Of a DNA stretch of 64,000 bases, positions 967 through 59,383 are shown piece by piece (the stretch's first letter is position 1; every line of letters starts with the position of its first letter). The notes under the pieces were generated by a model. That model searched no databases. It was not told where the DNA came from and worked only from the letters and a program-made list of their open reading frames with translations. The DNA comes from Candidatus Firestoneibacteriota bacterium (GTDB taxonomy: Bacteria > Oederibacteriota > D2-FULL-39-29 > JBBTED01): NCBI GenBank assembly GCA_038042445.1, contig JBBTED010000027.1, forward strand, positions 32,001-96,000. Reading direction: 5' to 3'. The translations under genes were made by a program, and so were the position numbers.

Positions 967-1476
967 TTAAGGTTTTTTTAAAAATTGTTTTTCAATTAGG
1001 TCTACAAGTTTTTTGGGCTGGTGAAAAGTAAAACAGGGGATTGTTTTAAAGTTATCTTTTAGGTAAAGTTTTTTACCTGTATTATTAACTATAGCAATTA
1101 GATTATCATTTTTGGTGCATAATAATTCCCCAGAACGTGTTACTTCAATTTTGGGATTACTTTCTTTCTTATAACCCTCAGTTATAATAATATCTACGTC
1201 AGTCAATAATTCTTTAGAAATTTTGCTAACTTTATATTCAGAGGTTAAATTCTTTATCATAGCCATTTTGTTATGCGAAGCGATAATTGTTGTTTGTGCT
1301 CCTGCTTTGTTTATTCTCCATGTATCTTTGCCTTTATAATCCATTTCAAAATGATGAACATCATGTTTTATTGCACCAATTTTATATCCTCTTTTTTTTA
1401 ACTGTGGAATAATTTTTTCAAGTAATGTTGTTTTCCCGCTATTTGATTTTCCAACAAATGAAATTATAGGTATCAT
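967..1476 (-). CDS. mobB: Molybdopterin-guanine dinucleotide biosynthesis protein B
   Basis: GKSNSGKTT, IKHDVH, GKDTW, EGYK motifs. Confidence 0.93.
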   Translation of the reverse strand: MIPIISFVGKSNSGKTTLLEKIIPQLKKRGYKIGAIKHDVHHFEMDYKGKDTWRINKAGAQTTIIASHNKMAMIKNLTSEYKVSKISKELLTDVDIIITEGYKKESNPKIEVTRSGELLCTKNDNLIAIVNNTGKKLYLKDNFKTIPCFTFHQPKKLVDLIEKQFLKKP

Positions 1477-1478
1477 AT

Positions 1479-2477
1479 TTAAATTAGTTTTTTTAATAAG
1501 AAACTACAAGACAATCCCACTCCTATTGCTACACTCATATCAGAAACAACACATAATAATCCAACAGCTGTTGCAAAAAATAATTTTTCCTTTTGCCCAA
1601 ATAAATCTTGTATCAATTGTGCATGTTTAATTCCTGTATATATCAAAAGACTCCCTAATATTGAAAATGGTATTAAAGAAAAAATGTTGGCTATTGATTT
1701 GCCTAAAAAAATTGCTGCTATAATAAAAATACTGCCCAACATTATATTAGCTCCGCCTGTTCTTGCGCCAAATTTGTAATGAGCTGTTAAACCACCTGCT
1801 CCATGACAAACAGGCATACCACCTAATACACCTGATATGATATTCGCTATACCCAAAGAAGTAGTAATTGCAACAGATGTAACTTTTGAAGATTTTTCAT
1901 TAAAATATTTTTGTGCTGTATCAACTGTTGCAATAACTGAATTACCGATTGTTACAGGTAATTGAGGTAATACAAGTGTAGAAAAAGCCAAAACAAAACT
2001 TTGTATATCAGGAAAACCAAAATTAGGAATAACAAATCCGAATGATAACGGAAAAATATTATGCGATTGGTGATTTCCAATAATTAATTTTATTCCATTT
2101 ATAATAAGCATAATACCCAACCCAAATTGTATTCCTCTAACTATAGGCAATGTAAATAACTTATGTATAAAATTTATTAGTTTTGTTACAGATAACAGAA
2201 TAAGGATTATTCCCATAATAATACCTGCAGCAGACAAAACCTCAGGTTTTGCATTTGTAACAATAGCAATAACAGCCATTGCTTTCATAGGCTGGACAGG
2301 AAATGGAATTTTAAAGTATATGCCTGTTATAAAATATAGTAGTCCTACTACAAAAAATAGAGATGTAGGATTTACACCATTTAGTAAAATAAGCGCAACA
2401 GATAAAGGTATAAGAACACCTAAATCACCTAAACTTCCTATAAATTCTTTTAAGTTAAATTTATAGTCTTTGAACAT
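1479..2477 (-). CDS. MOT1-family molybdate/oxyanion transporter
   Basis: GSLGDLG, PVQPMK, PVCHGAGGL..HYKFGART; start moved to ATG 2477 (TAATG overlap with moaA stop). Confidence 0.85.
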   Translation of the reverse strand: MFKDYKFNLKEFIGSLGDLGVLIPLSVALILLNGVNPTSLFFVVGLLYFITGIYFKIPFPVQPMKAMAVIAIVTNAKPEVLSAAGIIMGIILILLSVTKLINFIHKLFTLPIVRGIQFGLGIMLIINGIKLIIGNHQSHNIFPLSFGFVIPNFGFPDIQSFVLAFSTLVLPQLPVTIGNSVIATVDTAQKYFNEKSSKVTSVAITTSLGIANIISGVLGGMPVCHGAGGLTAHYKFGARTGGANIMLGSIFIIAAIFLGKSIANIFSLIPFSILGSLLIYTGIKHAQLIQDLFGQKEKLFFATAVGLLCVVSDMSVAIGVGLSCSFLLKKLI

Positions 2478-3445
2478 TATCCACCAACCTGACACATAAT
2501 GTTTTCATTATGATAAGAATTGAAAAATTTGCCTGTTGATTTTAAGCTAACTGCAGAAAGTATTGTGTTTTTTATTTCATTATCCGTATGTTTATTTCTC
2601 AATAAAGTTTTTAAGTCCACCTCTTCCGGAGAATGCAAACATAATTTTAATTTGCCATCAGCAGTTAATCGCAAACGATTACAGGAAAAACAAAAATATG
2701 AGGAAATAGGTCCTATGAACCCAACAGCTCCACCTTTAACCTGAAAATATTTTGCAGGACCTCCACCTGAAATTGTATCCATTGGAGTAAGATTCCAGTA
2801 TTTACTACATATGTTTTTTATTTCCTCTATTGAAACAAATTTGTCATTGCTCCAACCAAGACTATTATAAGTAGGCATATATTCTATAAATCTAACTATA
2901 TATGGATTTTCTATACAGAGCCGTATAAAATCCAGGATTTCATCATCATTTATATTTTTAATTACTACTGTATTAATTTTAATAGGTGAAAAATTTAACT
3001 TCTGCACTTCATCAATACCAGCTAATACCTGTGACAAACTACATCCTCTTGCTATCTTAATAAATTTATCATTATGTAATGTATCCAGACTTATGTTTAT
3101 ACGCTTTAAACCCGCATTTTTTAAATCTCTTGCATATTCTTTCAATAAAATACCATTAGTAGTAAGAGATATATCTTCTAAACCATTAATAGAATATATT
3201 TTTTTTATGAATTCTATTACTCCTTTTCTTACTAATGGTTCACCACCTGTTATTTTTATTTTTTTAATTCCCAATGACACAAGAATTCCAATCATTTTTT
3301 CCAATTCTTCAAAACTCAATATTTCATTTTTAGATTTTGGAATAACAGGTTTGTCCGGCATACAATAGATACAATTTAGATTACACCTATCTGTTATTGA
3401 AACTCTTAAATAGTCTATTTTTCTACCTAATGAATCTATTAGCAT
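2477..3445 (-). CDS. moaA: GTP 3',8-cyclase (radical SAM)
   Basis: YLRVSITDRCNLNCIYC, CFSCNRLR..GKLKLC, C-terminal GG; start ATG 3445 (or TTG 3451). Confidence 0.95.
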   Translation of the reverse strand: MLIDSLGRKIDYLRVSITDRCNLNCIYCMPDKPVIPKSKNEILSFEELEKMIGILVSLGIKKIKITGGEPLVRKGVIEFIKKIYSINGLEDISLTTNGILLKEYARDLKNAGLKRINISLDTLHNDKFIKIARGCSLSQVLAGIDEVQKLNFSPIKINTVVIKNINDDEILDFIRLCIENPYIVRFIEYMPTYNSLGWSNDKFVSIEEIKNICSKYWNLTPMDTISGGGPAKYFQVKGGAVGFIGPISSYFCFSCNRLRLTADGKLKLCLHSPEEVDLKTLLRNKHTDNEIKNTILSAVSLKSTGKFFNSYHNENIMCQVGG

Positions 3446-3460
3446 AGTCAATTTATCCTA

Positions 3461-3710: not shown

Positions 3711-3775
3711 CAGGACAAGAATGTCCTGCCTATCGTACAAATTACAATAGGTTGAGTTTTCTAACCCAACAAACT
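3711..3775. repeat. REP-like doublet, copy 2
   Basis: Direct repeat of 3461-3525; supplies the stop codon of tatA copy 1. Confidence 0.8.
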
Positions 3776-3940
3776 ATCTTTAATTTTATTTTCTTCTTCG
3801 TTTACTTCTTTAATTGATTTTTTGAATTCACCAATACTTTTGCCTATTCCTTTAGCTATATCAGGAAGTCTTTTAGCACCAAAAATCAAAAATGCTATTA
3901 CCAATATAACCAATAATTCTGGCATTCCTATATGTCCCAT
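3761..3940 (-). CDS. tatA: Twin-arginine translocase TatA, copy 1 (59 aa, absent from ORF track)
   Basis: Hand translation [59 protein letters not shown]. Confidence 0.92.
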
Positions 3941-3941
3941 T

Positions 3942-4472
3942 TTAATTCACCCCCGCTAAATTTTTAGATTCTGACTCTATAGAAATAATATTCTTTGTAA
4001 ATAAAGCAATATCGCGATAAAATGCAGTTTTAGCATTTTTTATCACATCATTACAAAAATCTGGCACCCATTGGGCAAGATGTTCCTGCACAAAAGTATT
4101 TTTTGCTTCAGATAAATTATATTTCCACAAATAACTCATAAATTCTAATTCTATACCTATGTGATCATCAAGATAATTTTGTGTGTTTAGAACTAAACCT
4201 GCATCTCTATAAAATTTTCTAACTTCTAACAAAGGCTCCTGACAGACAAGTTTTAAAGGTGAGTTGTATACAGATTCCCAGGGCGGTGCCAAAAGTTTGT
4301 GTGGACCTATAAAAAGTTGCGTATAATCCATTTTTAAATTAAACACATCAGCATCAGAAGATATATCTATTACATCTTGAACATCAGCAATTAACTGTTC
4401 ATCTGGAATTTTAAGAAAAGACAAACTCAATATGTGATAAACCTGAATATTTTTCATTTGTATTGTATTCAT
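3942..4472 (-). CDS. TorD/DmsD-family molybdoenzyme maturation chaperone
   Basis: [26 protein letters not shown]. Confidence 0.9.
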
Positions 4473-4490
4473 TGTTTAAAATTCCATATC

Positions 4491-4559
4491 CGTCATTGCG
4501 AACGAAGTGAAGCAATCTTATTTTTGGATTGCTTCGTCGTTTCACTTCTCGCAATGACG
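4491..4559. repeat. GTCATTGCGA-type long palindromic element
   Basis: cgtcattgcga..gaagcaatc / gattgcttc..tcgcaatgacg. Confidence 0.8.
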
Positions 4560-4566
4560 CCTTGCG

Positions 4567-5196
4567 TCATCTTAATACAACTTCTTTGAGATCATTAGAA
4601 GTCTTACGTGCTGGCTTAAATCTTGTAGAAGGTTTTGTATCTGATGGATCAGGAAAACCCGTTAATTGTTTAATTGTTCCTGATATTTTTTCATTTTCTG
4701 CTAATTTATCCCATTCAAGTGCTAATCCTAAACAAGTCTGAACACATGCAGGCTTTAAACCTTCATCAACACGTGGATAACAACCTATACATTTCTCATA
4801 TCTTTTCTTACCTTTAGATGGACTTTCATTAATCTGAGGAATACTGTATGGACAAGCATTTTTACAATTTCCACAGGACACACAAGTAACTTTTTCATAA
4901 TTAAGTGTGCCATCAGTATTTAAAGAAATATCATTATAAACTACAAGCCCATCTTTTTCTCTTTTTTCAATTCTCTTTACAGGACACACTTCAATACAAG
5001 CTGGCTCTTCACAATGATTACAACCTAAAGATAAATAACAAGTAATTGGATTTGGATATTTTCCACCTTCTAAAGTATGAACCTTTCTGTATCTTACTGT
5101 TACATCAACATTCCACTGCTGCTTACAAGCACCTTCGCAAGCGCGACATCCTATACAATTATCCTGATTGAAATAAAATCCTAATTGATTTTTCAT
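4567..5196 (-). CDS. Four-cluster Fe-S subunit (DmsB/PsrB-like)
   Basis: CIGCRACEGAC, CNHCEEPACIEVCP, CVSCGNCKNACP, CIGC..PACVQTC; start set at ATG 5196 after GGAGG. Confidence 0.9.
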   Translation of the reverse strand: MKNQLGFYFNQDNCIGCRACEGACKQQWNVDVTVRYRKVHTLEGGKYPNPITCYLSLGCNHCEEPACIEVCPVKRIEKREKDGLVVYNDISLNTDGTLNYEKVTCVSCGNCKNACPYSIPQINESPSKGKKRYEKCIGCYPRVDEGLKPACVQTCLGLALEWDKLAENEKISGTIKQLTGFPDPSDTKPSTRFKPARKTSNDLKEVVLR

Positions 5197-5251
5197 ATTT
5201 TCCCTCCAATTAATAAGCAAAGCTAAAGCTTTGCCCTACATAAATTTAAAC

Positions 5252-7639
5252 TTATGCTTTGTAAATTTTCACACCAACTTCTTTTGTAATAGCCTGGCCT
5301 GAAATAGCTTCTGCTTTACCAGGAAAAAATTGGCCATCTGCTACACCTTTACCTTTTGCAACAGAACCAAGTGCCCAGTGACCATAGCCATGATGTAAAC
5401 CAACAACTTCAGGATGAATTCCCTCTGTAAGATGAACTTTTCCTTTTGCTTTTGATATAGGAGATTCTATCCATACTTCATCACCATCATTTAAACCCAA
5501 TTTTTTTCCTGTATCAGTATTCATCCATAAAGGATTATCGGATTTCATTTCCATAAGCCATTCATTATTAAATGTTCTTGTATGAGTATGCTCTGCTTGT
5601 TTCCAACCAATAAGATAAAATGGATATTCTGATGTCGGCTTATCTTCCGGTTCAGTATACACTGGCAATGGATCATATCCTTTGTCTTTAAGCTGTTTAC
5701 TATAGAACTCTATTTTGCCAGATGGTGTCTTAAATCCATTTACAACCCAAAACCCATTACTCACTCCTATATATTTACCATCTTTGTCTTTAACTACTTT
5801 TGTGTCTGTATTAACAACAGCACCTTCTGGAACTTTAGCAGACTTTGAATATTTTTCATAAGTAGTTTTACCACCAATCCATGTAGCTCCATCCATAGCT
5901 CTTAATTCTGCTATAGAAATATTTATACCTGCTTTTAATTCTTCATTCATAGCTTCTTCATCTGTCTTCTCAAAACCTTTTCCATTTTTATCTTTCAATC
6001 CAAGTTTTTTTCCTACTGCTTTTACAAATTCATACTCTGTCATTCCATTTATCCATGATTTAACAACAGGCTGTCTTAAACCTAAAGCAGGAAATGTTAC
6101 CCAATTAGAATTCAAATCATATCTCTCTAAAAAATTACTTCCAGGGACAATCAAATCAGCTAACTCTGCTGTCTCTGAAAGATGTGTGTCAACTACTATT
6201 ACAAATTCCATATTCTTAATTGCTTCAAGATTTTTTGCTGTATTTGGAACTGACATAACCCAATTCTGAAAAACAAAAACAGCAGCTTTAACAGGATATG
6301 GTTTACCTGTTAACATTGCCTCACGTGCTTCTATATATATTCCAGAACCATGACCAAATGGATATTTTGTTCCAAGTCCATCTACACGTTGAGCTTTGGA
6401 TTTATCAACAGAAAATTTTATGTGTTTACCACCTTTTTTATCCGGACTAATCATTGTGCCTGATTTATCATAAAATCCAAGAAGTGCTGGTATCATAGCA
6501 ACAGCTCTTGAACCTTGTGTAGCATTTGTATGATGTCCAGGACCACTCCATACATCTATAACTGCTGATTTAGAAGATGCAAGTTCTCTCGCTATTCTTC
6601 TTACTACATCAGCAGGAACTGATGTGATTTTTTCCTGCCATTCAGGTGTTTTATCTGCAATAAATTTTTCATATTCATCAAATCCTATTGTCCAATTTTC
6701 AATAAAATCCTTGTTATACAGCTTTTCAGTAACAATAACATTGCCTATAGCAAGTGCCATAGCACCATCTGTTCCAGGTCGTAGTGAAATCCATTCATCT
6801 GCTTTAGCAGCTGTAGCTGAAAATACAGGGTCTACAACAACTAATTTTGCGCCTTTTTCTCTGCCTCTGTTTATAATAGCAGGCAAATGTGCCCATTTCA
6901 TTGCACCAAGAGGATTCCAGCCAAATAGTAATACATAATCAGCATTTTGAAAATCAGCTAAAGGTCTTTCATCTCCCATAACTGTAGAAAAACCTCTTTT
7001 TCTTGATACATCGCATAAATTTGCATGATTGTGATAATTAGGTGTGCCGAATAAATCACAAAAATCTATTTGTATATGTGTAAATGAATGGTCTTCAGAA
7101 AACCATACAAGAGATTCTGCACCATATTTTTTCTTTATTTCAGTTAATTTTGACGCAGCTTCTTCTATTGCTTGTTCCCATGTTATTGGTTCCCATTGCC
7201 CACTTCCTCTTTCACCTATTCGTTTCATAGGAGTTTTCAATCTATCCGGATCATACAAAGATTTTATAGCAGAATTACCTTTTGGACACATTCTGCCACC
7301 ACGTGATTTTTCATTTACAAAATCATTATATATATTAGCCACACCTATAGGATTATGTTCATTTGGTTCAATTTTGCGAATAACACCATCTATTACATTT
7401 ACCTTTATACCAGTTTGTCCACCACACATATTACAACAGGTATAAATCCACGTCCCTGTCTTTGCTTCTTTTTCTGCTGCAGTAGCTTCCCTGAATATAC
7501 CTAATTTGTTATCCAGGAATAAACCACTTGCAATAGCTGCAGTTCCTGTTACAGAACTCCACTTTAAAAATTCTCTTCTGGTAAATTTTTTTCCTGTAAC
7601 TTCAGAAAATAGATTTTTTTCTTTCTTCAAAATTTCCAT
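5252..7639 (-). CDS. Tat-exported molybdopterin oxidoreductase catalytic subunit, PsrA/PhsA/SrrA-like
   Basis: TRREFLK Tat motif; CCNMCGGQT..CPKG; YDPDRLK; likely Cys Mo ligand in HANLCD; TPSGKIE. Confidence 0.88.
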   Translation of the reverse strand: MEILKKEKNLFSEVTGKKFTRREFLKWSSVTGTAAIASGLFLDNKLGIFREATAAEKEAKTGTWIYTCCNMCGGQTGIKVNVIDGVIRKIEPNEHNPIGVANIYNDFVNEKSRGGRMCPKGNSAIKSLYDPDRLKTPMKRIGERGSGQWEPITWEQAIEEAASKLTEIKKKYGAESLVWFSEDHSFTHIQIDFCDLFGTPNYHNHANLCDVSRKRGFSTVMGDERPLADFQNADYVLLFGWNPLGAMKWAHLPAIINRGREKGAKLVVVDPVFSATAAKADEWISLRPGTDGAMALAIGNVIVTEKLYNKDFIENWTIGFDEYEKFIADKTPEWQEKITSVPADVVRRIARELASSKSAVIDVWSGPGHHTNATQGSRAVAMIPALLGFYDKSGTMISPDKKGGKHIKFSVDKSKAQRVDGLGTKYPFGHGSGIYIEAREAMLTGKPYPVKAAVFVFQNWVMSVPNTAKNLEAIKNMEFVIVVDTHLSETAELADLIVPGSNFLERYDLNSNWVTFPALGLRQPVVKSWINGMTEYEFVKAVGKKLGLKDKNGKGFEKTDEEAMNEELKAGINISIAELRAMDGATWIGGKTTYEKYSKSAKVPEGAVVNTDTKVVKDKDGKYIGVSNGFWVVNGFKTPSGKIEFYSKQLKDKGYDPLPVYTEPEDKPTSEYPFYLIGWKQAEHTHTRTFNNEWLMEMKSDNPLWMNTDTGKKLGLNDGDEVWIESPISKAKGKVHLTEGIHPEVVGLHHGYGHWALGSVAKGKGVADGQFFPGKAEAISGQAITKEVGVKIYKA

Positions 7640-7673
7640 TCATAAACCTCCTTGAGTATGTAAATTCTTAATT

Positions 7674-7716
7674 GTAGTTGCTGATTTATCAGCATTGCCC
7701 ATAAATGGGCAACTAC
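7674..7716. repeat. GTAG REP doublet
   Basis: gtagttgctgatttatcagc..gcccataaatgggcaactac; relatives at 8761-8812 and 59298-59346. Confidence 0.8.
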
Positions 7717-7725
7717 AGTAAATTT

Positions 7726-8745
7726 TTAAAAGTTAATCAACATATGTGTATAAATAACATTCGCGTTAGTTTGACCGGCATTACCTTCATATTTAACTTG
7801 TTGATTATCTACTGTGATTTTTATACCATCTGCAATATCATAACCAATTCCATAAATAGCTCTGTAGTGCGTATCTTCTGTTTTATTGTTATCTGGATCA
7901 AACCAATCGTATCTTGCAAAAGCAGATAAATTACCAAATAATTTATAAAAACCCCATCCAGAATAACCCCGGCCCACAGTATTAGTTCCACCCTGACTTG
8001 ATTGATCTATAGTATATAAATATTCTCCTGCTACAGTATAATTATCCTGTTCTAAACTCACAAATCCCATTGAACGATCTCTTTTTTGATTTGCATTGAC
8101 AAGTCCAGCTCTATGATGTGCTGCAATTTTCAAACCTTTCAAAGTATCAGGCATCGGAGTTAATCTAACCAAAGCATAACCATCTTTTGTTTTGTTTGCT
8201 TCAGGTCTGGCATAACCTTCGCCATTTGCAAGAACAAGATAGTATTCTAAATATTTGCTGATCAATTCGCCTCCAAGTTTTATTCCCAAATCACTTGATG
8301 TTTGTTTGCCTTCTGTATCTGCAAATATTGTACTTACAAAACGATGTTTCCATGTTCCCTCAACAACTGAATGCCATGGTAAACCTAATATACCAATAGA
8401 AAGTGTTGAAGAAGGCAATACATCCTTTATATCAATATAAGCAGTTTTAACAAAAACCTGTAATGAATTAGGATTTAGTGCAGACCATCTTCCTGAATCC
8501 AGTGTTAAGCTTAATCCAATTTTTTCTGCTAAATTGCTTTTAAAAGTCAAATATGTTCTTGTTAATTCAAATGCATTATAATCTGCTCCTTTTTCTGTTA
8601 AATCATAAGAATATTGAGAAAAAACAACGCCTGAAACTTTAATATCCTTTAACTTAACATCTGCCGCAAAAACAAAACTAACCATACATATTAGTACTAT
8701 TGGTACTAATATTGCTATTTTTTTATTTTTATGCATTTCTACCAT
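7726..8745 (-). CDS. Outer-membrane beta-barrel porin (OprO/P-like)
   Basis: Signal peptide, FELTRTYL, ARYDWFDP, amphipathic strands, C-terminal Phe. Confidence 0.7.
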   Translation of the reverse strand: MVEMHKNKKIAILVPIVLICMVSFVFAADVKLKDIKVSGVVFSQYSYDLTEKGADYNAFELTRTYLTFKSNLAEKIGLSLTLDSGRWSALNPNSLQVFVKTAYIDIKDVLPSSTLSIGILGLPWHSVVEGTWKHRFVSTIFADTEGKQTSSDLGIKLGGELISKYLEYYLVLANGEGYARPEANKTKDGYALVRLTPMPDTLKGLKIAAHHRAGLVNANQKRDRSMGFVSLEQDNYTVAGEYLYTIDQSSQGGTNTVGRGYSGWGFYKLFGNLSAFARYDWFDPDNNKTEDTHYRAIYGIGYDIADGIKITVDNQQVKYEGNAGQTNANVIYTHMLINF

Positions 8746-8760
8746 CTCCTTTTTTTATAT

Positions 8761-8812
8761 GTAGTTGCTGATTTATCAGCTGTCTTTTTATTGCCGATAA
8801 ATCGGCAACTAC
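8761..8812. repeat. GTAG REP doublet
   Basis: gtagttgctgatttatcagc..gccgataaatcggcaactac. Confidence 0.8.
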
Positions 8813-8902
8813 ATTGATTTTTTTACAAAAGATATAAATTTTTATCAATTTTTCCAAAATATTTATAGTCAGAATAATTATTGGGGTATGTAAGGTAAAT
8901 TC

Positions 8903-9523
8903 CTATAATTTAAAAAGGCCTGTTTTTATTGCATAATCAGTAAGTTCTGAACGGCCTGTCACACCTAATTTCTCCATAATTCTTGCTCTGTATGTTTCCA
9001 CGGTTTTAATACTTAAATCAAGTTTTTCTGCTATTTCCTTATTTACAAAACCTTTTGCAAGAAAGGTCAAAACTTCTTTTTCTCTTGGGCTTAATTTTTG
9101 CTCCGCTTCTTTTTCTTTTAACAATTTTGCCATACTGGAATGTATAAAAATATTTCCCTGCGAAATTGTTCTTATAGCATTTATAAGCGCAGCATCTGCT
9201 GCTTTTTTTGGCACATATCCTTTTGCACCAATTTTAATAAACTCCTGAAAGTATTCTGGCTCCTCATGCATTGTGAGGACAAGTATTTTAATCAATTGAT
9301 TCTGTTGCAAAAGTTTTTTTGCTACCTCAAGCCCATTCATATCAGGCATAGTGATATCAAGTAAAATAATATCCGGATTCAGTGTTTTACTTTTTATAAG
9401 AGCTTCTTTACCATTTGATGCTTCTCCAATTATATGTATATCCTGCTCTTTCTCAAGTAGCATCTTTAATCCTGCTCTTAAAATTGCATGGTCATCTACT
9501 ATTAAAACTTTAATTTTTACCAT
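8903..9523 (-). CDS. NarL/LuxR-family response regulator
   Basis: REC domain (DDH, LLDITMP) plus LSPREKEVL..SIKTVETYR HTH. Confidence 0.93.
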   Translation of the reverse strand: MVKIKVLIVDDHAILRAGLKMLLEKEQDIHIIGEASNGKEALIKSKTLNPDIILLDITMPDMNGLEVAKKLLQQNQLIKILVLTMHEEPEYFQEFIKIGAKGYVPKKAADAALINAIRTISQGNIFIHSSMAKLLKEKEAEQKLSPREKEVLTFLAKGFVNKEIAEKLDLSIKTVETYRARIMEKLGVTGRSELTDYAIKTGLFKL

Positions 9524-10969
9524 TTAAGCTTCCTCTTTAATTGGAACTTTAATATAGATTTCTGTTCCCTTATTTATATCAGATTTTATATTAAACTTGC
9601 CACCAAGAATATATATTCTTTCCTGCATTCCAAATAAACCGATTGGTTTTCTACCAGATGTAGTTTTTATCTTATCCATATCAAAACCCACACCATCATC
9701 TGTAATTGTAAGAATTAAATCAGATTTTTTTTTCTGAAGAGTTATATTCACTTTATCAGCCTTTGCATGTTTTATAATATTTGTAAATGCTTCCTGAATT
9801 ACCCTATACAAACCTATTTCAAGAGAAGATAGTAATTTAGTATTTTCGGAAAATCCTGAAGTTTTATATTCTACTTTTACAGGAAATGTATTTTCAAATT
9901 CTTCCACATATTTCCTCACTGCTTTCAAAAAACCAAAATCATCAAGTAAAGGAGGTCTTAATTCAACTGCCAAATTATGTATATCTTCTAACGAACTATT
10001 TAAAAGTGTTCTGAAACTTTCTAATTTATTTTTCATATCATCTTTTTCAATACCTGACTCAAAAGATTTAAGACCAATTTTAAGCGATGTCAAAGTTTGA
10101 CCTGTTTTATCATGTAATTCTCTTGCAATTCTGTTTCTTTCATCTTCCTGTGTATAAATAATTTTTTCTATTAATTTTTGTCTCATTTCCTCATTTTGTT
10201 TTAATTCTAACTGATTTTTTTCTAAATTTTCGACCATACTGTTAAATACTTTACCAAAACTCCCGAACTCGTCATTTGTTATGATATTAACACGGGTTTT
10301 AAGATTACCAGTGCTTACTTCATTCACTGCAAAGATTAATTTAGATAATGGCATATTTAAAATATACGTAAGAAAATACGATATAAAAATACCTATGAAC
10401 GCCATTATTATTATTGCAATTAAAAGATGCTTCGTGGCTTTTTGTAATGCTTCCCGCAAAGGAGCATCCACCAAACCTATTCTGACAACCCCGAGTCTAC
10501 CTTCAAATACAGAAACCAAAATATCAAGGATTTTTCCTTCTTCTGTATTAAGTATCTCCAGATTATACGGCACAAATTTCTCTTCAAAATTCACCTTCAC
10601 AAGTTCTTCTGAAACTCTATGTTCAAATGTATGAGCAACTATATGCCCATTTTTATCAAGAACAAGTATATATCGTATATCCTTATGGCTCTGGGTTGTT
10701 TCTTTTAATAATTCGTATATTCCAAATAAATTCCCAGTTAGAAGAGGTGATGCCAACCTTGATGCCAAATCTTTAGTTATTGCAATACCTTTTTCTTCAA
10801 CCTGATTTTTTAAGGATTTATAAAGCAGCACTCTTGTCTCAATTAAAGCCCCTATGCAAAATAACACAATTAAACCAAATGCTATACCCATTATTTTAAA
10901 AAATATAGGTACAGCTAACGCTTTTTCTATAAATTTACTGAAAAATTTTTTTGTTTCCAGAAACTTCAC
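9524..10969 (-). CDS. HAMP + HisKA_3 sensor histidine kinase
   Basis: Two TM segments, HAMP, ERNRIARELHD, DDGVGF, GLFGMQER. Confidence 0.92.
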   Translation of the reverse strand: MKFLETKKFFSKFIEKALAVPIFFKIMGIAFGLIVLFCIGALIETRVLLYKSLKNQVEEKGIAITKDLASRLASPLLTGNLFGIYELLKETTQSHKDIRYILVLDKNGHIVAHTFEHRVSEELVKVNFEEKFVPYNLEILNTEEGKILDILVSVFEGRLGVVRIGLVDAPLREALQKATKHLLIAIIIMAFIGIFISYFLTYILNMPLSKLIFAVNEVSTGNLKTRVNIITNDEFGSFGKVFNSMVENLEKNQLELKQNEEMRQKLIEKIIYTQEDERNRIARELHDKTGQTLTSLKIGLKSFESGIEKDDMKNKLESFRTLLNSSLEDIHNLAVELRPPLLDDFGFLKAVRKYVEEFENTFPVKVEYKTSGFSENTKLLSSLEIGLYRVIQEAFTNIIKHAKADKVNITLQKKKSDLILTITDDGVGFDMDKIKTTSGRKPIGLFGMQERIYILGGKFNIKSDINKGTEIYIKVPIKEEA

Positions 10970-11898
10970 TGAATTGCACCTATTTCTTCTAATATTGTTT
11001 TTGCAGAATTATATATTTTACTGTCAGGGATAATAAATTTTTCTACAAAGATTTTATTTAGAATTTTTTTGCCTTCTTCATCCTTGTTCATATTTAAAAA
11101 TGCATCTTGTAATTTCTTTTTAATCTCATGATTGATTTTGCTTCCTGTTACAACAGGAGGAATTCCAAAAGATGGAGATTTATTAATAATTTTTGTTTTT
11201 AATGCACAGATATCTTTTTGCTTTATTAAAATATCGTATACAATACTATCTACACAAGCAGCATCTGTTATTTTTTCTGCTACTGATTTTATTGAATTAT
11301 CATGACTACCTGTAAATATAAATTTACTAAAGAAGTTATCTGGTGTCCAGCCTGATTTAAACAGACAATATTTAACATAAAAATATCCTGTTAGAGAAAG
11401 TGGATCGCAAAAAGCAAAACTTTTGTTTTTCAAATCATTTAAATTTGTTAGTTCACTGTTTTTTTCTACTATTATATATGAATAGTAATAAGGTTCTCCT
11501 TCAACTACAGGAACAGCTAAAATATCCAATGTAAAATCAACATTTGCCCTAATGTAAGCGCCTGTACAAATAAATGCCACATCACATTCAGAATTTCTAA
11601 GTAACTCATTAACTTCCCCATAAGTATTCTTCTGCACAAGTTGAATATTTACTTCCATTTTTTTTCTGAGATATTCTATTAAATCAGCATATAGAATTAA
11701 TGAAGCTTTTGGAGAAACAACAGAAGCAATAGCAAGTTTAATAGTATTATTTTTATAATCTTTATTTAATAAATCGGTAGAGTCTACTGGCTTAAGTCTG
11801 ACTTTTTTATATTCTGGAGTTTTATCGCATCCTAAAAATAGAAGCAAAAAGCATAAAATCAAAATTTTAAAATATTCTATTTTTTTGACTATTAGCAT
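10966..11898 (-). CDS. PhnD-fold oxyanion-binding lipoprotein (AioX/ArxX-like)
   Basis: Lipobox LLFLGC; DVAFICTGAY, DPLSLTG, GSHDNSI; no ABC permease nearby; overlaps kinase start. Confidence 0.82.
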   Translation of the reverse strand: MLIVKKIEYFKILILCFLLLFLGCDKTPEYKKVRLKPVDSTDLLNKDYKNNTIKLAIASVVSPKASLILYADLIEYLRKKMEVNIQLVQKNTYGEVNELLRNSECDVAFICTGAYIRANVDFTLDILAVPVVEGEPYYYSYIIVEKNSELTNLNDLKNKSFAFCDPLSLTGYFYVKYCLFKSGWTPDNFFSKFIFTGSHDNSIKSVAEKITDAACVDSIVYDILIKQKDICALKTKIINKSPSFGIPPVVTGSKINHEIKKKLQDAFLNMNKDEEGKKILNKIFVEKFIIPDSKIYNSAKTILEEIGAIQ

Positions 11899-11962: not shown

Positions 11963-12013
11963 CAGGACAAGAATGTCCTGCCTATAGGTTGGGTTTTCTA
12001 ACCCAACCTATAG
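11963..12013. repeat. REP-like doublet, copy 3
   Basis: caggacaagaatgtcctgcctataggttgggttttctaacccaacctatagg. Confidence 0.8.
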
Positions 12014-12022
12014 GGTTTTTGA

Positions 12023-12217
12023 CTAATTTAGCTTTGCTATATCTTTAATTTTATTTTCCTCTTCCTTTACTTCTTTATTAATTTCTTTCATTGAATTTTT
12101 AAATTCACCTATACTTTTGCCGATTCCCTTAGCTATTTCAGGTAATTTTTTTGCACCAAAAATCAAAAATGCTATTGCTAATATAACTAATAATTCTGGC
12201 ATTCCTATATTCCCCAT
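12023..12217 (-). CDS. tatA: Twin-arginine translocase TatA, copy 2
   Basis: [27 protein letters not shown]. Confidence 0.93.
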
Positions 12218-12330: not shown

Positions 12331-12831
12331 TTAACTCCTCAAGAATATATTGCCTACTATATAAACAATTGAAATGGCAATCAAATGTAGCAACCACCAC
12401 CCCATATTTGGGTAACGAAAAAATCTGTCTTTGCGCTTCAATTCAGAACTTGTATTCATTATATCCAATTCAAAAATAGCTTTTCCAAATGCAAATTTTC
12501 CAAATAATAAAATTATATCTGGTAAAGTAGTTTTTAGTATTAAATTTGAAGGTGTTATTACTTCCGGCAAATTTAAAAGTGAAAAATGTGCCATTGTAAT
12601 TGTTCCTATAATCACTAACATACCATTTATCACATAAGCATATTGTGTAGTTTTAGTATAAAAAAATAATACAGGTATAGCAAGGACACTTATAATACCT
12701 GATATAAAAGGTATTAAATGCTGTGATTCTTCAAAAGGTGGATGTATACGCAAATGCAAAAACCATCCTCCTAAAGAAATAAAAAATAACCCACTTATCA
12801 ATACTATTCGTACATTTTGCTTTTGCGTCAT
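12331..12831 (-). CDS. Multi-pass membrane protein with His in TM segments
   Basis: About 5 hydrophobic segments; WFLHLRIH, MAHFS, WWLLH. Confidence 0.65.
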   Translation of the reverse strand: MTQKQNVRIVLISGLFFISLGGWFLHLRIHPPFEESQHLIPFISGIISVLAIPVLFFYTKTTQYAYVINGMLVIIGTITMAHFSLLNLPEVITPSNLILKTTLPDIILLFGKFAFGKAIFELDIMNTSSELKRKDRFFRYPNMGWWLLHLIAISIVYIVGNIFLRS

Positions 12832-12925: not shown

Positions 12926-13561
12926 CTAAAGTTTACTGTTTTTTAAATATATTTGCTTTGCCTTACTATAATTATCAAGTGTGTTTATATTAAAAAATGA
13001 AAGTAATTGTGTGTCAAATTGTTTTATTTCTCTTAAAGATATATTTTTTTTAATGATTTTAGCAAAAAAATTGGTTATTTTCAAATTAGTTTTCTCTAAT
13101 TGCTTTTCTATAGGTTTTATGCAATTTTTAGAATAAAATGCAAATAATGGTTCATATCCTTTTTGAAAAAAAGGAATAATAGCATCATATTTTTTATCTT
13201 TTGTAAACTTTTTCATATATTCAAGTAATTGGACATTCAAAAATGGCATATCACAAGCAGTAACAAAATTATAAAGTGTCTTTGAATACATTAAACCTGA
13301 ATAAAGCCCACCAATAGAACCTTTATCTTTGATATAATCACATACAACTTTTAAATGCAAGTCTTTATTTTTAAAAGAATTAACAATTGGTTCAATTTCT
13401 TTTTCGCGCATTTTAGAATTTACAACTACAATAATATTTTTGAAAATTTTTGCTAGTAGATTTATTCTACGTTCAAGCATTGTTTTATTTGCAAAAGGAA
13501 GGAATATTTTGTTTGTATTGATACGCGTGCTTTTTCCACCAGCAAGAATAATTGCTGTCAT
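12926..13561 (-). CDS. mobA: Molybdenum cofactor guanylyltransferase
   Basis: IILAGGKSTR, ACDMPF, EPLFAFY, FFNINT. Confidence 0.92.
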   Translation of the reverse strand: MTAIILAGGKSTRINTNKIFLPFANKTMLERRINLLAKIFKNIIVVVNSKMREKEIEPIVNSFKNKDLHLKVVCDYIKDKGSIGGLYSGLMYSKTLYNFVTACDMPFLNVQLLEYMKKFTKDKKYDAIIPFFQKGYEPLFAFYSKNCIKPIEKQLEKTNLKITNFFAKIIKKNISLREIKQFDTQLLSFFNINTLDNYSKAKQIYLKNSKL

Positions 13562-14004
13562 AGGACAGATATTTTATCTCCAGTTTTTATTTCGCCGCCT
13601 TGCAGTACTTTGGCAAATATACCTTCTTTTGGCATCACACAATCACCAACAGCATAATATATAGCGCAGTGAGAATGACAAACCTTTCCAATTTGTGTAA
13701 CTTCCAATAGAATATTTTCGCCGATTTGTATTTTGGTTCCAATTAAAAGATCTTTTAAATTTATCCATTCTGTAGTGATATTTTCTGCAAAATCTCCGGG
13801 CTTTACTTGTAAACCCTTCTCAATTATTTTATTTATACTTTCTTGAGCAAGCAAGCTTATTTGCCTATGCCAATCACCTGAATGTGCATCTCCAACAATT
13901 CCAAAGTTTTCTTTAAGACAAGCAAAAGGAATATTTTGTTTTTTTTCGCCTTTATTTTTACTTATAGATATTGCAATTATACTACCTGTTTGTTCACAAT
14001 TCAT
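13558..14004 (-). CDS. MOSC-domain protein
   Basis: GIVGDAH..WHRQISLL, GDFAENITT, QIGKVCHSHC, CVMPKEG. Confidence 0.9.
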   Translation of the reverse strand: MNCEQTGSIIAISISKNKGEKKQNIPFACLKENFGIVGDAHSGDWHRQISLLAQESINKIIEKGLQVKPGDFAENITTEWINLKDLLIGTKIQIGENILLEVTQIGKVCHSHCAIYYAVGDCVMPKEGIFAKVLQGGEIKTGDKISVL

Positions 14005-15637
14005 GACATTGCCTACATTCTTTTTTTGACATTTTTAAACGGACATCTTTATGCTGGCCAAATTCATGACAACTTATACAATCCAAACCAGCTTCAAGAT
14101 GTTTTAGATGCGGCATAATTTTATTTCCATATTTTACTGTTTCCGAAGGAATTTTGATATTCAATTTTGAATGACACATAGTCATACAAAATCTTCCGTT
14201 AATCAGTATATTTTCATTCATAGAAGGTAATTCTTTTTTAAGTAAATTACCTATTTTATCCAAAGATTTATTTGCTACCTGTAAAATCTGAACAGAATAA
14301 TAGATATTATGCAAACCACGTTTTTCTGATATAAACTGTATATTGTATCGGACATCTGAAAGCAATGTATTAGCATTATTGAAATCCGTTGAATTTTTAG
14401 GAATGGATTTAACCAAATCTTCTGCAATTTTTGATTTTGAATTAATTTCATCTAATGCATCATTTAAAATCTTTTTCCATTCTAATACCAAACCAGTATA
14501 TTTTTCACCATGACATTTAACACATGCATCTTCTTTATATTTGTATGTACTTCCATCAAATTTTGTGTTGCCATGAATTTGTTCTGAAATATGACAACCT
14601 ACACAATCCACATTTGCAAGATACATAGCACTTGGCATATCTGGAACTCCTTTTGCACCTATACCTTTATAAATCTGCTGAACACCTGTATGTTTATCTG
14701 TATGACATTTAGCACAATTAAGAGAAGTCATTTCTTTTTTAGATATAGTAGTTATAGAATGCCTCATTTCCTTATGACAATGAAAACAAGCTACATTCCT
14801 TTTTGTGATATGCTGCTCATGAATAAATTTCAAATCATTGTATTTTTGCAGTTTCTCAGGCTGATTATGACAGGTGTAACATCTTTCCTGTGGAGCTTCA
14901 CCATCCCCTTGAATAACATCTAAATGACACTTTTTACAACTCACATCTTTACCTTTTGCTGAAACAAAATTTTTGTGATTATAAACTATATTCCCTATTG
15001 TAAAATCTGTTTCAGGAACTTTATGGCAAGAAATACATCCACCAATAGGATTAATATCACGTGCCGTTTTCTTACCCTTAAAATGGCAAAGGTAACAGGT
15101 GTCCCATGTTACTTCAACATGTTTACCAACAACCATTTGTGAATGGCAAGAAGTACATCTAAGATGTCTACCACGACGTTCTTCAGTTAAATGATGCCTG
15201 TGGTTAAACATTATGCCTTTTTTTGTAGTAATTTTTCCTTCTAATAATCTGGTTGAATGACAACCTACCCTCAAACAAGAAGTATCTTCTATTTCAGCAT
15301 AAGGTTTAGATGAATATGTCCGTGTGACATATTTGGCAACTTGTGATAAAGCCTGAAATTTTTTCCATAATATTGTTTTAGGTTCACCAGGTGGATAGTG
15401 ACATTCTACACAAGCAACATTATTATGTTTTGAATTTTTCCATGCATCATAATATGGTTTCATTATATGACAGGATTTACAAAAAGATGGAGTGGTAGAA
15501 TATTTTGCCAACCCAAGTAAAATTACAACAAGTAATATTAATAATAAACCTATTAATTTAAAAAATCTTTTTTTAAAACTAATATACCATTTTTTATCTG
15601 GTGAAATTTCTATTCCTAAAAAAGAAAGTAAGTTCAT
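13994..15637 (-). CDS. Membrane-anchored multiheme cytochrome c with NapC/NirT-like N-terminus
   Basis: N-terminal TM, TTPSFCKSCHIM; 13 CxxCH plus one CX4CH and one CX3CH by manual count. Confidence 0.88.
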   Translation of the reverse strand: MNLLSFLGIEISPDKKWYISFKKRFFKLIGLLLILLVVILLGLAKYSTTPSFCKSCHIMKPYYDAWKNSKHNNVACVECHYPPGEPKTILWKKFQALSQVAKYVTRTYSSKPYAEIEDTSCLRVGCHSTRLLEGKITTKKGIMFNHRHHLTEERRGRHLRCTSCHSQMVVGKHVEVTWDTCYLCHFKGKKTARDINPIGGCISCHKVPETDFTIGNIVYNHKNFVSAKGKDVSCKKCHLDVIQGDGEAPQERCYTCHNQPEKLQKYNDLKFIHEQHITKRNVACFHCHKEMRHSITTISKKEMTSLNCAKCHTDKHTGVQQIYKGIGAKGVPDMPSAMYLANVDCVGCHISEQIHGNTKFDGSTYKYKEDACVKCHGEKYTGLVLEWKKILNDALDEINSKSKIAEDLVKSIPKNSTDFNNANTLLSDVRYNIQFISEKRGLHNIYYSVQILQVANKSLDKIGNLLKKELPSMNENILINGRFCMTMCHSKLNIKIPSETVKYGNKIMPHLKHLEAGLDCISCHEFGQHKDVRLKMSKKECRQCHEL

Positions 15638-15689
15638 ATTTTAACAGTTTTTAAATTTTTCAGTGGGTGATTTCTTTCTAAAATCCCCC

Positions 15690-17540
15690 TTAGTCCCCCT
15701 TTTTCAAAGGGGGATTTATTATTTTTTCATTATCAATTTTTTTTCCTGTAATCCATTGCCAACTCATTGGATAGATTTCCGGGTCAAAAATTGTCCAGTA
15801 AAAATGCCAGATAATAATTGCAACAGTAGCAAGTATTGCTTCATAAAAATGAATTAGTGTGGCTAAATCAGTAATCCATAATGGCAGATATTTTAAAGTT
15901 ATATTTTCAAATAAAAGCAAAATTCCTGTTACTATCATTATAATAGAACCCCATATAAGTGCCCAATATTCAAATTTTTCCATATAATTGTACTCACGAA
16001 ATTGTGGTTTTTCTTTACACAAACCAATATTATATCCAATAAATTTAAATGCATCAGTGATATCTTTGAATACAGGAAATAATTGTGTTACTCTCTTTCT
16101 GCCTGCTTTTGTAAATACAAGATAAAAAACGTGGAATATTGCAAATAGAATAAATATAAATGCTGTCCAGTGATGAATTTCACTCCTTATTTGTGAACCT
16201 TCCTCTAAAATTCTAAATGGATATGCCCACCAACTTTCAGGATATTTTACTGCAAAACCAGTATAAGCAAGTACTGAAAAACAAATCAAAAGTCCAAAGT
16301 GTTGTATTCTTTCATTAATACTCATTCTTTTATCATTCGCTTCTTTTTTACATTTTTTGTAATGTTCTCGTAAATTTTTTAAAAAATGAATTGCATTATG
16401 AAAAATCATACCACCAATTGTTAAAAGTATTAATGATATATAGAATATTTTAACATAATATATAATTAAATTTTTTTCTTTTGAATCTTTAGTATGTATA
16501 GAACCTGAAGCAAGCATTGCACCTGCACCAGGATGACATTTTCCACACGTCTTCGGTAGATTTACTTTATTTATGGAGGAAAGTTTATTATCTGACATCA
16601 AAATATCATGAAATCCATGACAAGAAGCACAATTAGCTACTCTTAAATCACCAGCTTTACCTGATAATCCATGAAATGAATCTAAATATGTTTGAACTCT
16701 ATCTGCAGGCAATCCAAATTTCGTAACAATTTTTTCAGAAGCATGACACCCTGAACAGGTTTTGGTTATTGCACCAATATATACAGATGATTCTTTGTCT
16801 TTAACAGCACGTATTGTATGTTCACCATGACAATCAATACATACTGGTGCTTCTTTAACACCTGCTTTTGAAACCACACCATGAATACTTCTTTCATATA
16901 CTTTAAATACATTTTCATGACATTTACTACAAGTAACTGGAATATTCTTATGAAATATTTTTGACATAGAGTTTGATGAACCATATATGTTGTGAGACCC
17001 ATGACAATCAGTACATACTGCTGCATTCATTTCTCCATTTTTCAATGCCTGGCCATGAATACTGTTTCTATAAGATTTATATGGTTCCTTTTGTGTAAGG
17101 TGAAATTTTTCCATTTTGCCTGAATTCCCATGGCAGTGTGTACAAGTATCAGGAATGTTTTTATGATAAACCGGAGATTTTGGATTTCTGCTATTCAAAA
17201 TAGTATGTGTGCTACCATGACAAGCTTTACAAGTAGCTGCTTCATTTATACCTTTAAGCTGTGCTTTTCCATGATCACTATTTAAATAGATTTCTGATTC
17301 TATTCTATGGCAGTCTTTACAAGATACAGGTTTTAATTTTTCATTATGCGGCAATTCCTTAATATCACTATGGCAAGAAATACACAGATTATTTCCATGT
17401 ATGGATTTTCCAAAAGCATTTGAATTAACCAATGGTGCGCCACTTTCTTTATCTTTATGACACACCATACATTCTTCATTTTCCTGTGCATATAGCAACG
17501 AAGATACAAATATAAAAAAAATAAAAATCTTTGTTTTCAC
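15690..17540 (-). CDS. Multiheme cytochrome c / cytochrome b fusion (CbcL-like), 11 CxxCH
   Basis: 11 CxxCH, then TM b-type domain (ERIQH, IHH, YMEKFEYWAL, IHFYEA, WHFY); start probably GTG 17540 or ATG 17555. Confidence 0.88.
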   Translation of the reverse strand: MKTKIFIFFIFVSSLLYAQENEECMVCHKDKESGAPLVNSNAFGKSIHGNNLCISCHSDIKELPHNEKLKPVSCKDCHRIESEIYLNSDHGKAQLKGINEAATCKACHGSTHTILNSRNPKSPVYHKNIPDTCTHCHGNSGKMEKFHLTQKEPYKSYRNSIHGQALKNGEMNAAVCTDCHGSHNIYGSSNSMSKIFHKNIPVTCSKCHENVFKVYERSIHGVVSKAGVKEAPVCIDCHGEHTIRAVKDKESSVYIGAITKTCSGCHASEKIVTKFGLPADRVQTYLDSFHGLSGKAGDLRVANCASCHGFHDILMSDNKLSSINKVNLPKTCGKCHPGAGAMLASGSIHTKDSKEKNLIIYYVKIFYISLILLTIGGMIFHNAIHFLKNLREHYKKCKKEANDKRMSINERIQHFGLLICFSVLAYTGFAVKYPESWWAYPFRILEEGSQIRSEIHHWTAFIFILFAIFHVFYLVFTKAGRKRVTQLFPVFKDITDAFKFIGYNIGLCKEKPQFREYNYMEKFEYWALIWGSIIMIVTGILLLFENITLKYLPLWITDLATLIHFYEAILATVAIIIWHFYWTIFDPEIYPMSWQWITGKKIDNEKIINPPLKKGD

Positions 17541-17567
17541 CCGAAAATCTCCCATTTTATTGTTTCT

Positions 17568-17623
17568 GTAGCTGCAAAGCAATAGCTTTGCTTTTTTTTT
17601 GCAGAGCTTCGCTCTGCCGCTAC
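17568..17623. repeat. GTAG REP doublet (gcaaagc..gctttgc / gcagagc..gctctgc)
   Basis: Free-standing relative of the core carried by the 140-bp MITE. Confidence 0.75.
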
Positions 17624-17664
17624 ACTGCCAACTGACCAAAATTTACAACTATAAATATTCTTAC

Positions 17665-59346: not shown

Positions 59347-59383
59347 AAATTAAAATATATTTAAAATACAAATACTTAAAAAT

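Follow-up and report, generated by a model that had tools for sequence, protein, structure and literature searches.

Microbial reduction of arsenate and antimonate controls the amounts of these metalloids that enter groundwater, and field surveys of the process count arrA and, lately, anrA. Among the described enzymes, ArrAB of Shewanella sp. ANA-3 is an anchor-less periplasmic arsenate reductase fed by CymA, a membrane tetrahaem cytochrome of the NapC/NirT type. Geobacter sp. SVR is said to carry an anchor-less cluster, anrXSRBAD, which is induced by Sb(III) and encodes AnrA, a periplasmic protein of the dimethyl sulfoxide reductase family. In the accessible parts of three papers, AnrA is regarded as a respiratory Sb(V) reductase of that same enzyme family (PMC12183865, PMC13284237, PMC11521347). 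The regulators of such systems are of more than one kind: as given in the accessible part of one study, ArrR of Chrysiogenes arsenatis is FixJ/CitB-like and has no AAA+ domain, and AioR and ArxR are sigma-54 activators (PMC5908839). Here, we describe an operon in a 64,000-nucleotide stretch of DNA from a Candidatus Firestoneibacteriota bacterium (the window, positions 32001-96000 of contig C27 in a 2.8-Mb draft genome that is 90% complete), which has a G+C content of about 30%. Eight genes, X, S, R, a porin gene, A, B, D and tatA, lie head to tail, all on the minus strand, and we lean towards reading them as an arsenate or antimonate reductase that receives its electrons from cytochromes and is controlled by a module of the ArrXSR type. 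The gene set, the family placements, the conservation of the operon and its arsenic-linked neighbours are established here.

Organization of the operon

Protein families were assigned by Pfam and NCBIfam profile searches. In the direction of transcription, the features of the operon are as follows.

10966-11898, minus strand: X, a predicted periplasmic lipoprotein sensor of the AioX/ArrX subfamily with a PhnD fold (PF12974, E 3.8e-55)
9524-10969, minus strand: S, a membrane histidine kinase (sCache-like, HAMP, HisKA_3 and HATPase domains; Pfam)
8903-9523, minus strand: R, a response regulator of the NarL/FixJ type (receiver and GerE helix-turn-helix; Pfam, NCBIfam)
8761-8812, no strand: a GTAG-tagged repetitive extragenic palindromic (REP) doublet in the gap between R and the porin gene (nested palindrome in the sequence)
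7726-8745, minus strand: an outer-membrane beta-barrel porin, OprO/P-like (Atlas clusters, tblastn)
7674-7716, no strand: a GTAG-tagged REP doublet in the 87-bp gap between the porin gene and A (sequence and motif count)
5252-7639, minus strand: A, a catalytic subunit exported by the twin-arginine translocation (Tat) system and carrying a molybdenum-bis(pyranopterin guanine dinucleotide) cofactor (Pfam, NCBIfam and PDB matches, trees)
4567-5220, minus strand: B, a ferredoxin subunit (Fer4_11; TIGR02951 at 136.6 bits against a cut-off of 214)
3942-4472, minus strand: D, a Tat proofreading chaperone of the TorD/DmsD type (PF02613, E 3e-28)
3761-3940, minus strand: tatA1, a TatA/E paralogue (PF02416, TIGR01411)

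The genes are tightly packed, with a 4-bp overlap between X and S, S abutting R, and 1 bp separating D from tatA. An earlier note on this DNA had given the order X-S-R-porin-A-B-D-tatA, and both the order and the coordinates were confirmed.

The catalytic subunit forms a clade of its own

A carries molybdopterin oxidoreductase domains and a twin-arginine signal, FTRREFLK. Its best matches in the PDB are Thermus Psr (2vpw, E 5.6e-92), followed by acetylene hydratase and ArrA (E 2.6e-54), and it falls below every curated cut-off, reaching 449.5 of the 694 bits needed for PhsA (NF012032), 215.1 of 1600 for ArrA (NF041714, where the match is split into three stretches) and 130 of 1750 for TtrA (NF011567). 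The molybdenum ligand is Cys209, which lies within HxNxCDxxRK, a motif present in 141 of the 142 family proteins; H205, C209 and K214, the equivalents of ArrA His189, Cys193 and Lys198, do not vary among 16 aligned members. Two clade members, P0170 and P0172, have Ser and Lys in place of the ligand Cys and are possibly inactive or differently ligated offshoots.

The segment that holds the FS0 cluster sets A apart further. Where four ArrA-type proteins have CQGCT[ST]WC, A has CCNMCGGQT, which bears out the earlier remark that the CQGC motif of ArrA and ArxA is missing from it. The FS0 motif of A reads C69-x2-C72-x3-T76...C118, and the third Cys is replaced in 133 of the 142 members (Ser in 92, Thr in 41) and kept in 7, with the basal members among those that keep it. 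A Ser or Thr at this position suggests a [3Fe-4S] cluster or a cluster with an unusual ligand.

A search with A against 1.84 billion representatives gave about ten clusters between 1039 and 508 bits and then a gap down to 423 bits or less, and the Atlas search with A returned generic names only. Two trees were built, one with FastTree from 150 rows (the A of the window, 11 chosen family members, and listed representatives of 640-1000 aa) and one with IQ-TREE from 55 hand-picked rows, rooted on the two formate dehydrogenases of the host genome. A falls in a clade of 19 rows that has a support of 100 in both. This clade stands apart from the one that holds two proteins over the PhsA cut-off (1058 and 998 bits), and apart from an ArrA-labelled clade that holds four proteins with CQGCTxWC, RGRY and HSxICAEAEK, which came from 4 of 401 genomes of another phylum; in the IQ-TREE analysis, the A clade and the ArrA-labelled clade each have a support of 100. 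The branching order among the A, PhsA-labelled and ArrA-labelled clades is not settled by either tree. Both trees place A outside the curated thiosulfate reductases as well as outside the ArrA-labelled proteins. On these placements, A is neither ArrA nor PhsA and belongs to a clade of its own in which we found no characterised member, and literature searches, with supplements outside their scope, found no description of the clade.

Related operons keep company with arsenic genes

We compared 83 related loci, 80 of them metagenomic and 3 from named metagenome-assembled genomes (MAGs). Wherever there was room downstream, B directly followed A on the same strand (66 of 66 loci), D was downstream in 56 of 59 loci with room, and tatA adjoined the cluster in 13 of the 83. 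In the 21 loci with the longest flanks, which we chose for a survey of neighbouring genes, 120 of 219 flanking open reading frames were scanned against Pfam. No NrfD was found among these 120 proteins, and the PhsC partner was likewise absent from them.

The recurrent neighbours are molybdenum cofactor genes and arsenic genes. The arsenic genes encode ArsR with a CVC motif, an ArsC-like phosphatase, ArsD, ArsA and ArsP_1, along with thioredoxin and DsbD-type partners, which are the usual company in ars operons, and Acr3, which exceeds its curated cut-off (465.6 against 282.8 bits). At least one of ArsR, Acr3, ArsC, ArsP and ArsD was nearby in 19 of the 83 loci, and in 12 of the 32 with a flank of at least 7.8 kb. 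A homologue of X was nearby in 14 of the 83, either X or an ars gene in 31, and both in 2. One subgroup, with an A of 776 aa, has an ArsR gene no more than about 1 kb upstream of its cytochrome-A-B-D cluster on the opposite strand. By reasoning rather than computation, with a few ars genes among the thousands of a genome, they would rarely be expected within 10 kb of A by chance.

Where X is present in other loci, it is accompanied by a sigma-54 regulator (L048), a LytTR regulator (L005), a NarL-type regulator (L004, as in the window) or a chemoreceptor (L066, L089), so that different branches of the A clade carry different regulators that share the tie to arsenic and antimony. In the last two loci (L066:5894-9466 and L089:45-6683), the X homologue lies near a gene for a methyl-accepting chemotaxis protein, upstream of the enzyme genes, which hints at taxis towards the same oxyanion.

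These neighbours bear on the range of substrates that the earlier note had left open, namely oxyanions of antimony, selenium, arsenic or sulfur. The arsenic and antimony side of that range is favoured by the ArsR, Acr3, ArsC-like, ArsD, ArsA and ArsP genes beside relatives of A. They also bear on the first alternative, in which A-B would be a sulfur-compound reductase of the Psr/Phs kind acting on thiosulfate, tetrathionate or polysulfide, with cytochromes in place of NrfD and the PhnD-fold sensor recognising a sulfur oxyanion. The best curated model for A is PhsA, whose 449.5-bit alignment is full-length, the best structure is Thermus 2vpw (E 5.6e-92), relatives carry the name 'thiosulfate reductase/polysulfide reductase chain A' in annotations from the Joint Genome Institute (JGI), and a rhodanese-fused flavoprotein is encoded near one related locus, L031. 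Furthermore, TtrS and ThsS have PhnD-like sensor domains and work with LuxR-type regulators. We nevertheless consider a sulfur substrate improbable, since A remains under the PhsA cut-off and outside the PhsA-labelled clade, no NrfD or PhsC partner occurs in the 21 loci, the recurrent neighbours are arsenic-resistance genes and ArsR rather than sulfur genes, and among solved binders ArrX and AioX are by far the nearest to X.

A second alternative takes the arsenic genes as parts of general metalloid stress islands and assigns the enzyme another oxyanion, such as selenite, selenate, tellurate, vanadate or phosphite. The superclade of enzymes with a Cys ligand does include selenite and selenate reductases, according to the accessible part of one source (PMC7331816). 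Chromate transporter and heavy-metal resistance domains are encoded by neighbouring genes within some loci (L070, L053), and X weakly matches a putative selenate-binding model (90.8 bits against 250). Against this stand the absence of any recurrent selenium- or tellurium-specific gene in the surveyed flanks, the identity of the neighbours, which are specifically ArsR, Acr3, ArsC, ArsD, ArsA and ArsP, and the closeness of X to arsenic sensors, and we regard such a substrate as having only a slim chance.

The sensor and regulator are of the ArrXSR type

X was described in the earlier note as a PhnD-fold lipoprotein without ABC transporter partners, and this description agrees with the PF12974 match, with the lipobox LFLG|C, whose Cys24 is conserved in at least 90% of 46 aligned homologues, and with the neighbouring genes, none of which is an ABC transporter gene adjoining X or encodes transporter domains. 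In the PDB, X is matched best by ArrX (6x6b, E 8.4e-52) and AioX (8ed5, E 7.6e-34), and transport binders follow at a distance, with PhnD (3p7i) at E 7e-15 and PtxB also near 1e-15. By sequence comparison, X thus belongs to the AioX/ArrX sensor subfamily and not with the transport protein PhnD. Its match to the selenate-binding model, mentioned above, stays well under the cut-off.

The pocket of AioX is formed by Tyr88, Cys106, Tyr131, Ser161, Ser163, His192 and Asp210, as listed in the accessible part of the AioX study (PMC5908839). In X, the equivalent residues in the PDB alignment are Y93, C111, Y138, S168, T170, H199 and D217, six of which are identical, with Thr in place of S163. The earlier note had placed the Cys of AFICTGAY at the position of the arsenite-binding Cys of AioX; when the alignment to 8ed5/6esk is read by hand, it does align with Cys106. 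The 116 aligned homologues of X preserve the pocket pattern YCYSTHD, and in 91 of them the fifth residue is Thr. Besides the 300-aa form, there are homologues of about 530 aa (P0319, P0328, P0337, P0341 and others), in which the match covers 75-80% of X.

S has two predicted transmembrane stretches, the hydrophobic segments 13-50 and 174-192, and a periplasmic domain that is a single Cache. R is, by its domains, of the ArrR kind (FixJ/NarL), which makes the module one of the ArrXSR type and not of the sigma-54 Aio/Arx type. The earlier classification of the module as an aioXSR/arxXSR-type sensing system therefore holds for X, a member of the AioX/ArrX subfamily, and gives way to ArrXSR for the regulator.

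A third alternative concerns the direction of the reaction. A-B could in principle work backwards, like Arx relative to Arr, oxidising arsenite or antimonite anaerobically and passing electrons to the periplasmic cytochrome pool. The Cys with which AioX binds arsenite is retained in X, a sigma-54 regulator is paired with X in some relatives (L048), as in Aio and Arx, and the partner of the enzyme is a soluble cytochrome c. The third FS0 Cys is substituted by Ser or Thr in 133 of 142 members, and AioA has a three-Cys [3Fe-4S] cluster, which the FS0 site would resemble. ArsR, which adjoins the 776-aa subgroup, responds to reduced forms. Induction of the arr operon in Shewanella ANA-3, however, reportedly depends on ArsR as well. 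Among solved structures, X matches the arsenate binder ArrX best, and R belongs to the ArrR type. Moreover, tblastn with A detected no nitrate reductase in the genome, leaving no obvious acceptor chain, and the named carriers of the family come mostly from groups taken as anaerobes. We therefore judge oxidation unlikely and favour reduction of arsenate or antimonate.

Genomic surroundings and proposed electron route

Outside the eight genes, the operon is flanked by the following features.

12023-12217, minus strand: tatA2, a second TatA/E copy directly upstream of X (family match, alignment to tatA1)
12926-14004: mobA and a MOSC gene, upstream of the operon
13994-20409, minus strand: three inner-membrane multihaem cytochromes (Pfam, NCBIfam, counts of CxxCH motifs and helices)
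967-3451, minus strand: moaA, a MOT1-type molybdate transporter and mobB, the downstream molybdenum cofactor genes

The surroundings are a molybdenum and cytochrome island, and the molybdenum cofactor genes seen here also recur beside A in loci L004, L005 and L012. A gene between tatA2 and mobA (12331-12831) encodes a 166-aa membrane protein that has several His residues and is predicted to form four helices. Neither Pfam nor NCBIfam assigns it to a family, and no counterpart was seen next to A in the other loci.

How electrons reach A-B is a question raised by the absence of a membrane anchor, which the earlier note had inferred from the lack of an NrfD/PsrC gene. There is none in the operon, in the whole window or in the 21 loci scanned, and so that part of the claim stands; set against it are the three membrane multihaem cytochromes encoded 2-8 kb upstream. 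A search of the genome with PF03916 gave two NrfD genes, both to the left of the window, and both were rejected as a hidden anchor. The first follows the alpha subunit of a formate dehydrogenase-N (TIGR01553, 1223 bits) and an iron-sulfur subunit. The second belongs to a tetrahaem-NrfC-NrfD module that lies 8-10 kb away, across genes on the opposite strand. This module (L003:13340-15922, equal to C27:25340-27922) encodes a membrane-anchored tetrahaem cytochrome c of 166 aa, a four-cluster iron-sulfur protein with a Tat signal, and NrfD. It has no catalytic subunit beside it, is possibly a general quinol:cytochrome module, and could feed the periplasmic pool. The formate dehydrogenase-N type alpha subunit is encoded with iron-sulfur, NrfD-like and FdhE-like genes (L003:2673-13200, equal to C27:14673-25200), and this set follows genes for a c554-like cytochrome, a Porin_O_P porin and a sigma-54 two-component system, which are unusual neighbours for a formate dehydrogenase. 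Apart from A itself, tblastn with A found only two formate dehydrogenases in the genome.

Of the three upstream cytochromes, one is an NrfH/NapC-like protein of 547 aa with 13 CxxCH motifs and one N-terminal helix, and the other two are fusions of haem-c and cytochrome-b domains, 649 and 914 aa long with 11 and 19 CxxCH motifs, respectively. Cytochrome-b domains are present only in these fusions, 8-12 kb upstream. From their proximity, the three proteins are candidates for a route from quinol to the periplasm that would serve A-B.

Comparison with the related loci suggests what they may have come to replace. Of the 63 loci whose sequence extends at least 600 bp upstream of A, 59 encode, within 800 bp of A on that side, a small multihaem cytochrome c that has a signal peptide and either three or five CxxCH motifs. 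The missing anchor is a trait of the whole A family, which normally has a small periplasmic multihaem cytochrome. In the closest loci with context, L004 (66% identical) and L012 (64%), the order is porin, cytochrome, A, B, D, tatA, and where these have the cytochrome gene (L004:9490-10011 and L012:6247-6753), the window has the 87-bp gap with its REP doublet (7640-7725). A tblastn search of the host genome (E<=1e-3) detected no relative of the small cytochrome. The gap before A and the lack of a homologue in the genome together indicate that the cytochrome gene was lost from the copy in the window.

Partner proteins and repeat elements

B has four Cys clusters and no signal peptide, so that it would be exported together with A; its start may alternatively be the ATG at residue 9. 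The porin has a signal peptide and a C-terminal Phe. Its Atlas sequence starts at residue 4, and the real start is probably the ATG at 8736. The suggestion that the reductase has a porin of its own is borne out by the gene in the operon, but the window porin has no Pfam match, PF07396 included, and its likeness to OprO/P comes through Atlas and tblastn neighbours. In its nearest Atlas clusters, 30-53% of members have Porin_O_P (PF07396), with a feature score of 0.98 and, for one such cluster, a structure TM of 0.87. By tblastn, it is 24-28% identical to Porin_O_P-positive porins at L003:9412-10425 and L012:5078-6166, whose own matches to this family have E values of 6e-9 (L012) and 1.5e-8 (L003).

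The two TatA proteins are 81% identical, and each gene is followed by the same REP-like palindrome (GTTGGGTT..AACCCAAC), which lies at 11981-12014 after tatA2. This element provides tatA1 with its final five codons and its stop codon, and a second copy of the element occurs about 200 bp further on. The REP doublets have the form of a GTAG-tagged nested palindrome, GTAGTTGCC..GGCAA..GCTGATAAATCAGCAACTAC, and the window contains 6 copies of their core pattern, where 0.15 would be expected. Two doublets (7674-7716 and 8761-8812) bracket the porin gene, and a further pair is found at 59300-59348 (core 59304-59340). We considered the palindromes, two upstream of the porin gene and one upstream of A, as operators for R and rejected this idea, as they are copies of the REP doublet that is also present at 59.3 kb. 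A promoter scan gave 38 sites, fewer than in shuffled sequences (mean 48).

Proposed mechanism

Substrate, direction of the reaction, electron route and control by X-S-R are what we infer. The oxyanion would pass the outer membrane through the OprO/P-like porin. By analogy to ArrXSR and AioXSR, X would bind either the oxyanion or its reduced product and signal through the periplasmic domain of S to R, which would switch on the porin gene, A, B, D and tatA. From what is known of these families, the TorD-like D is expected to mature A-B, which would be exported jointly by the Tat system with the dedicated TatA. Electrons from menaquinol would travel through multihaem cytochromes, not an NrfD anchor, to the four iron-sulfur clusters of B. 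In the related loci, the small tri- or pentahaem cytochrome would carry them, and here the three large upstream membrane cytochromes are its likely substitute. From B, electrons may pass through the three-Cys FS0 cluster to the Cys-ligated molybdenum centre, where the oxyanion would be reduced.

Several observations weigh against this mechanism. Neither ars genes nor X are present in 52 of the 83 related loci, many of which have short flanks, and the Acr3 and ArsR/ArsP-like genes of the host genome lie on other contigs. Without the cytochrome gene of the family, the pathway in the window may be rewired or impaired. The closest curated model for A, PhsA, is a sulfur enzyme, and the His at -4 from the molybdenum ligand is also found in PhsA-labelled proteins and so does not discriminate. 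No cultured carrier is among the relatives listed; none of those of A, P0067 and X, nor any of ten clusters, bears the name of an isolate. TtrS and ThsS sensor domains have, to our knowledge, no solved structure with which X could be compared, so that its closeness to ArrX is compatible with a sulfur oxyanion as well. Pockets are degenerate in two of the seven context-linked copies of X. Ligand specificity is moreover not fixed by the pocket residues alone, as the accessible part of the AioX study states (PMC5908839), and X thus places the system among arsenic-type sensors without naming the ligand. Finally, the substrate-binding motif RGRY, residues 163-166 of ANA-3 ArrA (PMC13685797), has WFSE as its aligned counterpart in A and W[FCM]xE/D in the family as a whole.

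Distribution and significance

Relatives of A at 55-81% identity are numerous, the closest among the matches listed being P0002 (81%) and P0003 (74%). The family comprises at least 142 clusters at 90% identity among the matches listed, and its presence was confirmed in at least 255 metagenome stretches. Named relatives are MAG or metagenome records only, from Armatimonadota, Nitrospirae, Brocadiales, Geobacteraceae, Ca. Sulfobium and others; most named carriers are MAGs of Nitrospirae, Deltaproteobacteria, Geobacteraceae and Brocadiales, which are taken as anaerobes. A search with A in 40 relatives that share the class or phylum of the host did not recover the family; the single match, at 31% identity, is another enzyme. 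This absence and the mixed phyla of the carriers point to transfer between lineages. No canonical ArrA was found in the host genome, and none of the three other carrier genomes searched has one over the cut-off.

We tentatively suggest that, beside Arr/Arx and Aio, arsenic- and antimony-respiring molybdoenzymes have a third lineage that has been overlooked, namely the A clade. It would be anchor-less, wired to the periplasmic cytochrome pool and equipped with a three-Cys FS0 cluster, and transfer would have carried it into Nitrospirota, Desulfobacterota, Armatimonadota, Omnitrophota-like and other uncultured bacteria of groundwater and sediment. If this is so, surveys based on arrA miss a substantial share of the capacity for mobilising arsenic or antimony in aquifers and wetlands. 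If the family respires these elements, its carriers, which appear without a canonical ArrA, would account for a part of arsenic and antimony reduction that goes unmeasured, and metalloid respiration would have been invented more than once in the Psr/Arr superclade. The family also raises the questions of how A-B can operate when a soluble multihaem cytochrome replaces the quinol-oxidising anchor, what is bound at the C-x2-C-x3-(S/T) FS0 site, and how sensors of the AioX/ArrX kind choose their ligand.

Comparison with known systems

Three described systems were considered as relatives and set aside on the accessible parts of their sources. The antimonite oxidase NaoABC is NapA-like with a Rieske subunit and of a different lineage, the Soe-like candidate of Thioalkalivibrio is a cytoplasmic Soe and likewise of a different lineage, and for the ArrAB-independent growth of Fusibacter on arsenate a cytoplasmic mechanism is proposed. 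AnrA, the proposed antimonate reductase of Desulfuribacillus stibiiarsenatis and Geobacter sp. SVR, is the most evident candidate among described families for one to which A may belong; the order B-A-D given for its cluster, if right, differs from the A-B-D of 66 of 66 loci. No description of the anr cluster was found in the literature searched, and no protein of Desulfuribacillus stibiiarsenatis or Geobacter sp. SVR is named in the top-120 lists for A and P0067, in which most entries are nameless.

PsrABC of Thermus thermophilus (2vpw) and PhsABC of Salmonella share with the system in the window the domain order, the Cys ligand, the Tat signal and a four-cluster B subunit. Unlike them, the window system has no membrane subunit and no third FS0 Cys, and its regulators and neighbours are of the arsenic type. 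The logic of Shewanella sp. ANA-3, in which CymA feeds ArrAB, is the same as we propose for the NrfH-like 547-aa cytochrome, although A belongs to another catalytic clade and the candidate donors, linked to it by proximity, have 13-19 haem motifs, with two of them fused to cytochrome b.

The closest described system is ArrXSR-ArrAB of Chrysiogenes arsenatis. In both, a PhnD-fold, lipoprotein-type sensor whose pocket residues are the same is joined by a kinase and by a FixJ/NarL regulator that lacks an AAA+ domain, and both have a soluble periplasmic A-B without an NrfD anchor, in which Cys ligates the molybdenum, and His and Lys occupy the positions of ArrA 189 and 198. They differ in that A has WFSE for RGRY and CCNMCGGQT for CQGCTxWC and is only about 25% identical to RGRY-type ArrA, that X and ArrX agree in only about 35% of the first 102 aligned columns (counted by hand), and that a porin and a TatA gene are part of the operon in the window. 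The two systems thus appear to follow the same logic, with a catalytic subunit drawn from another clade.

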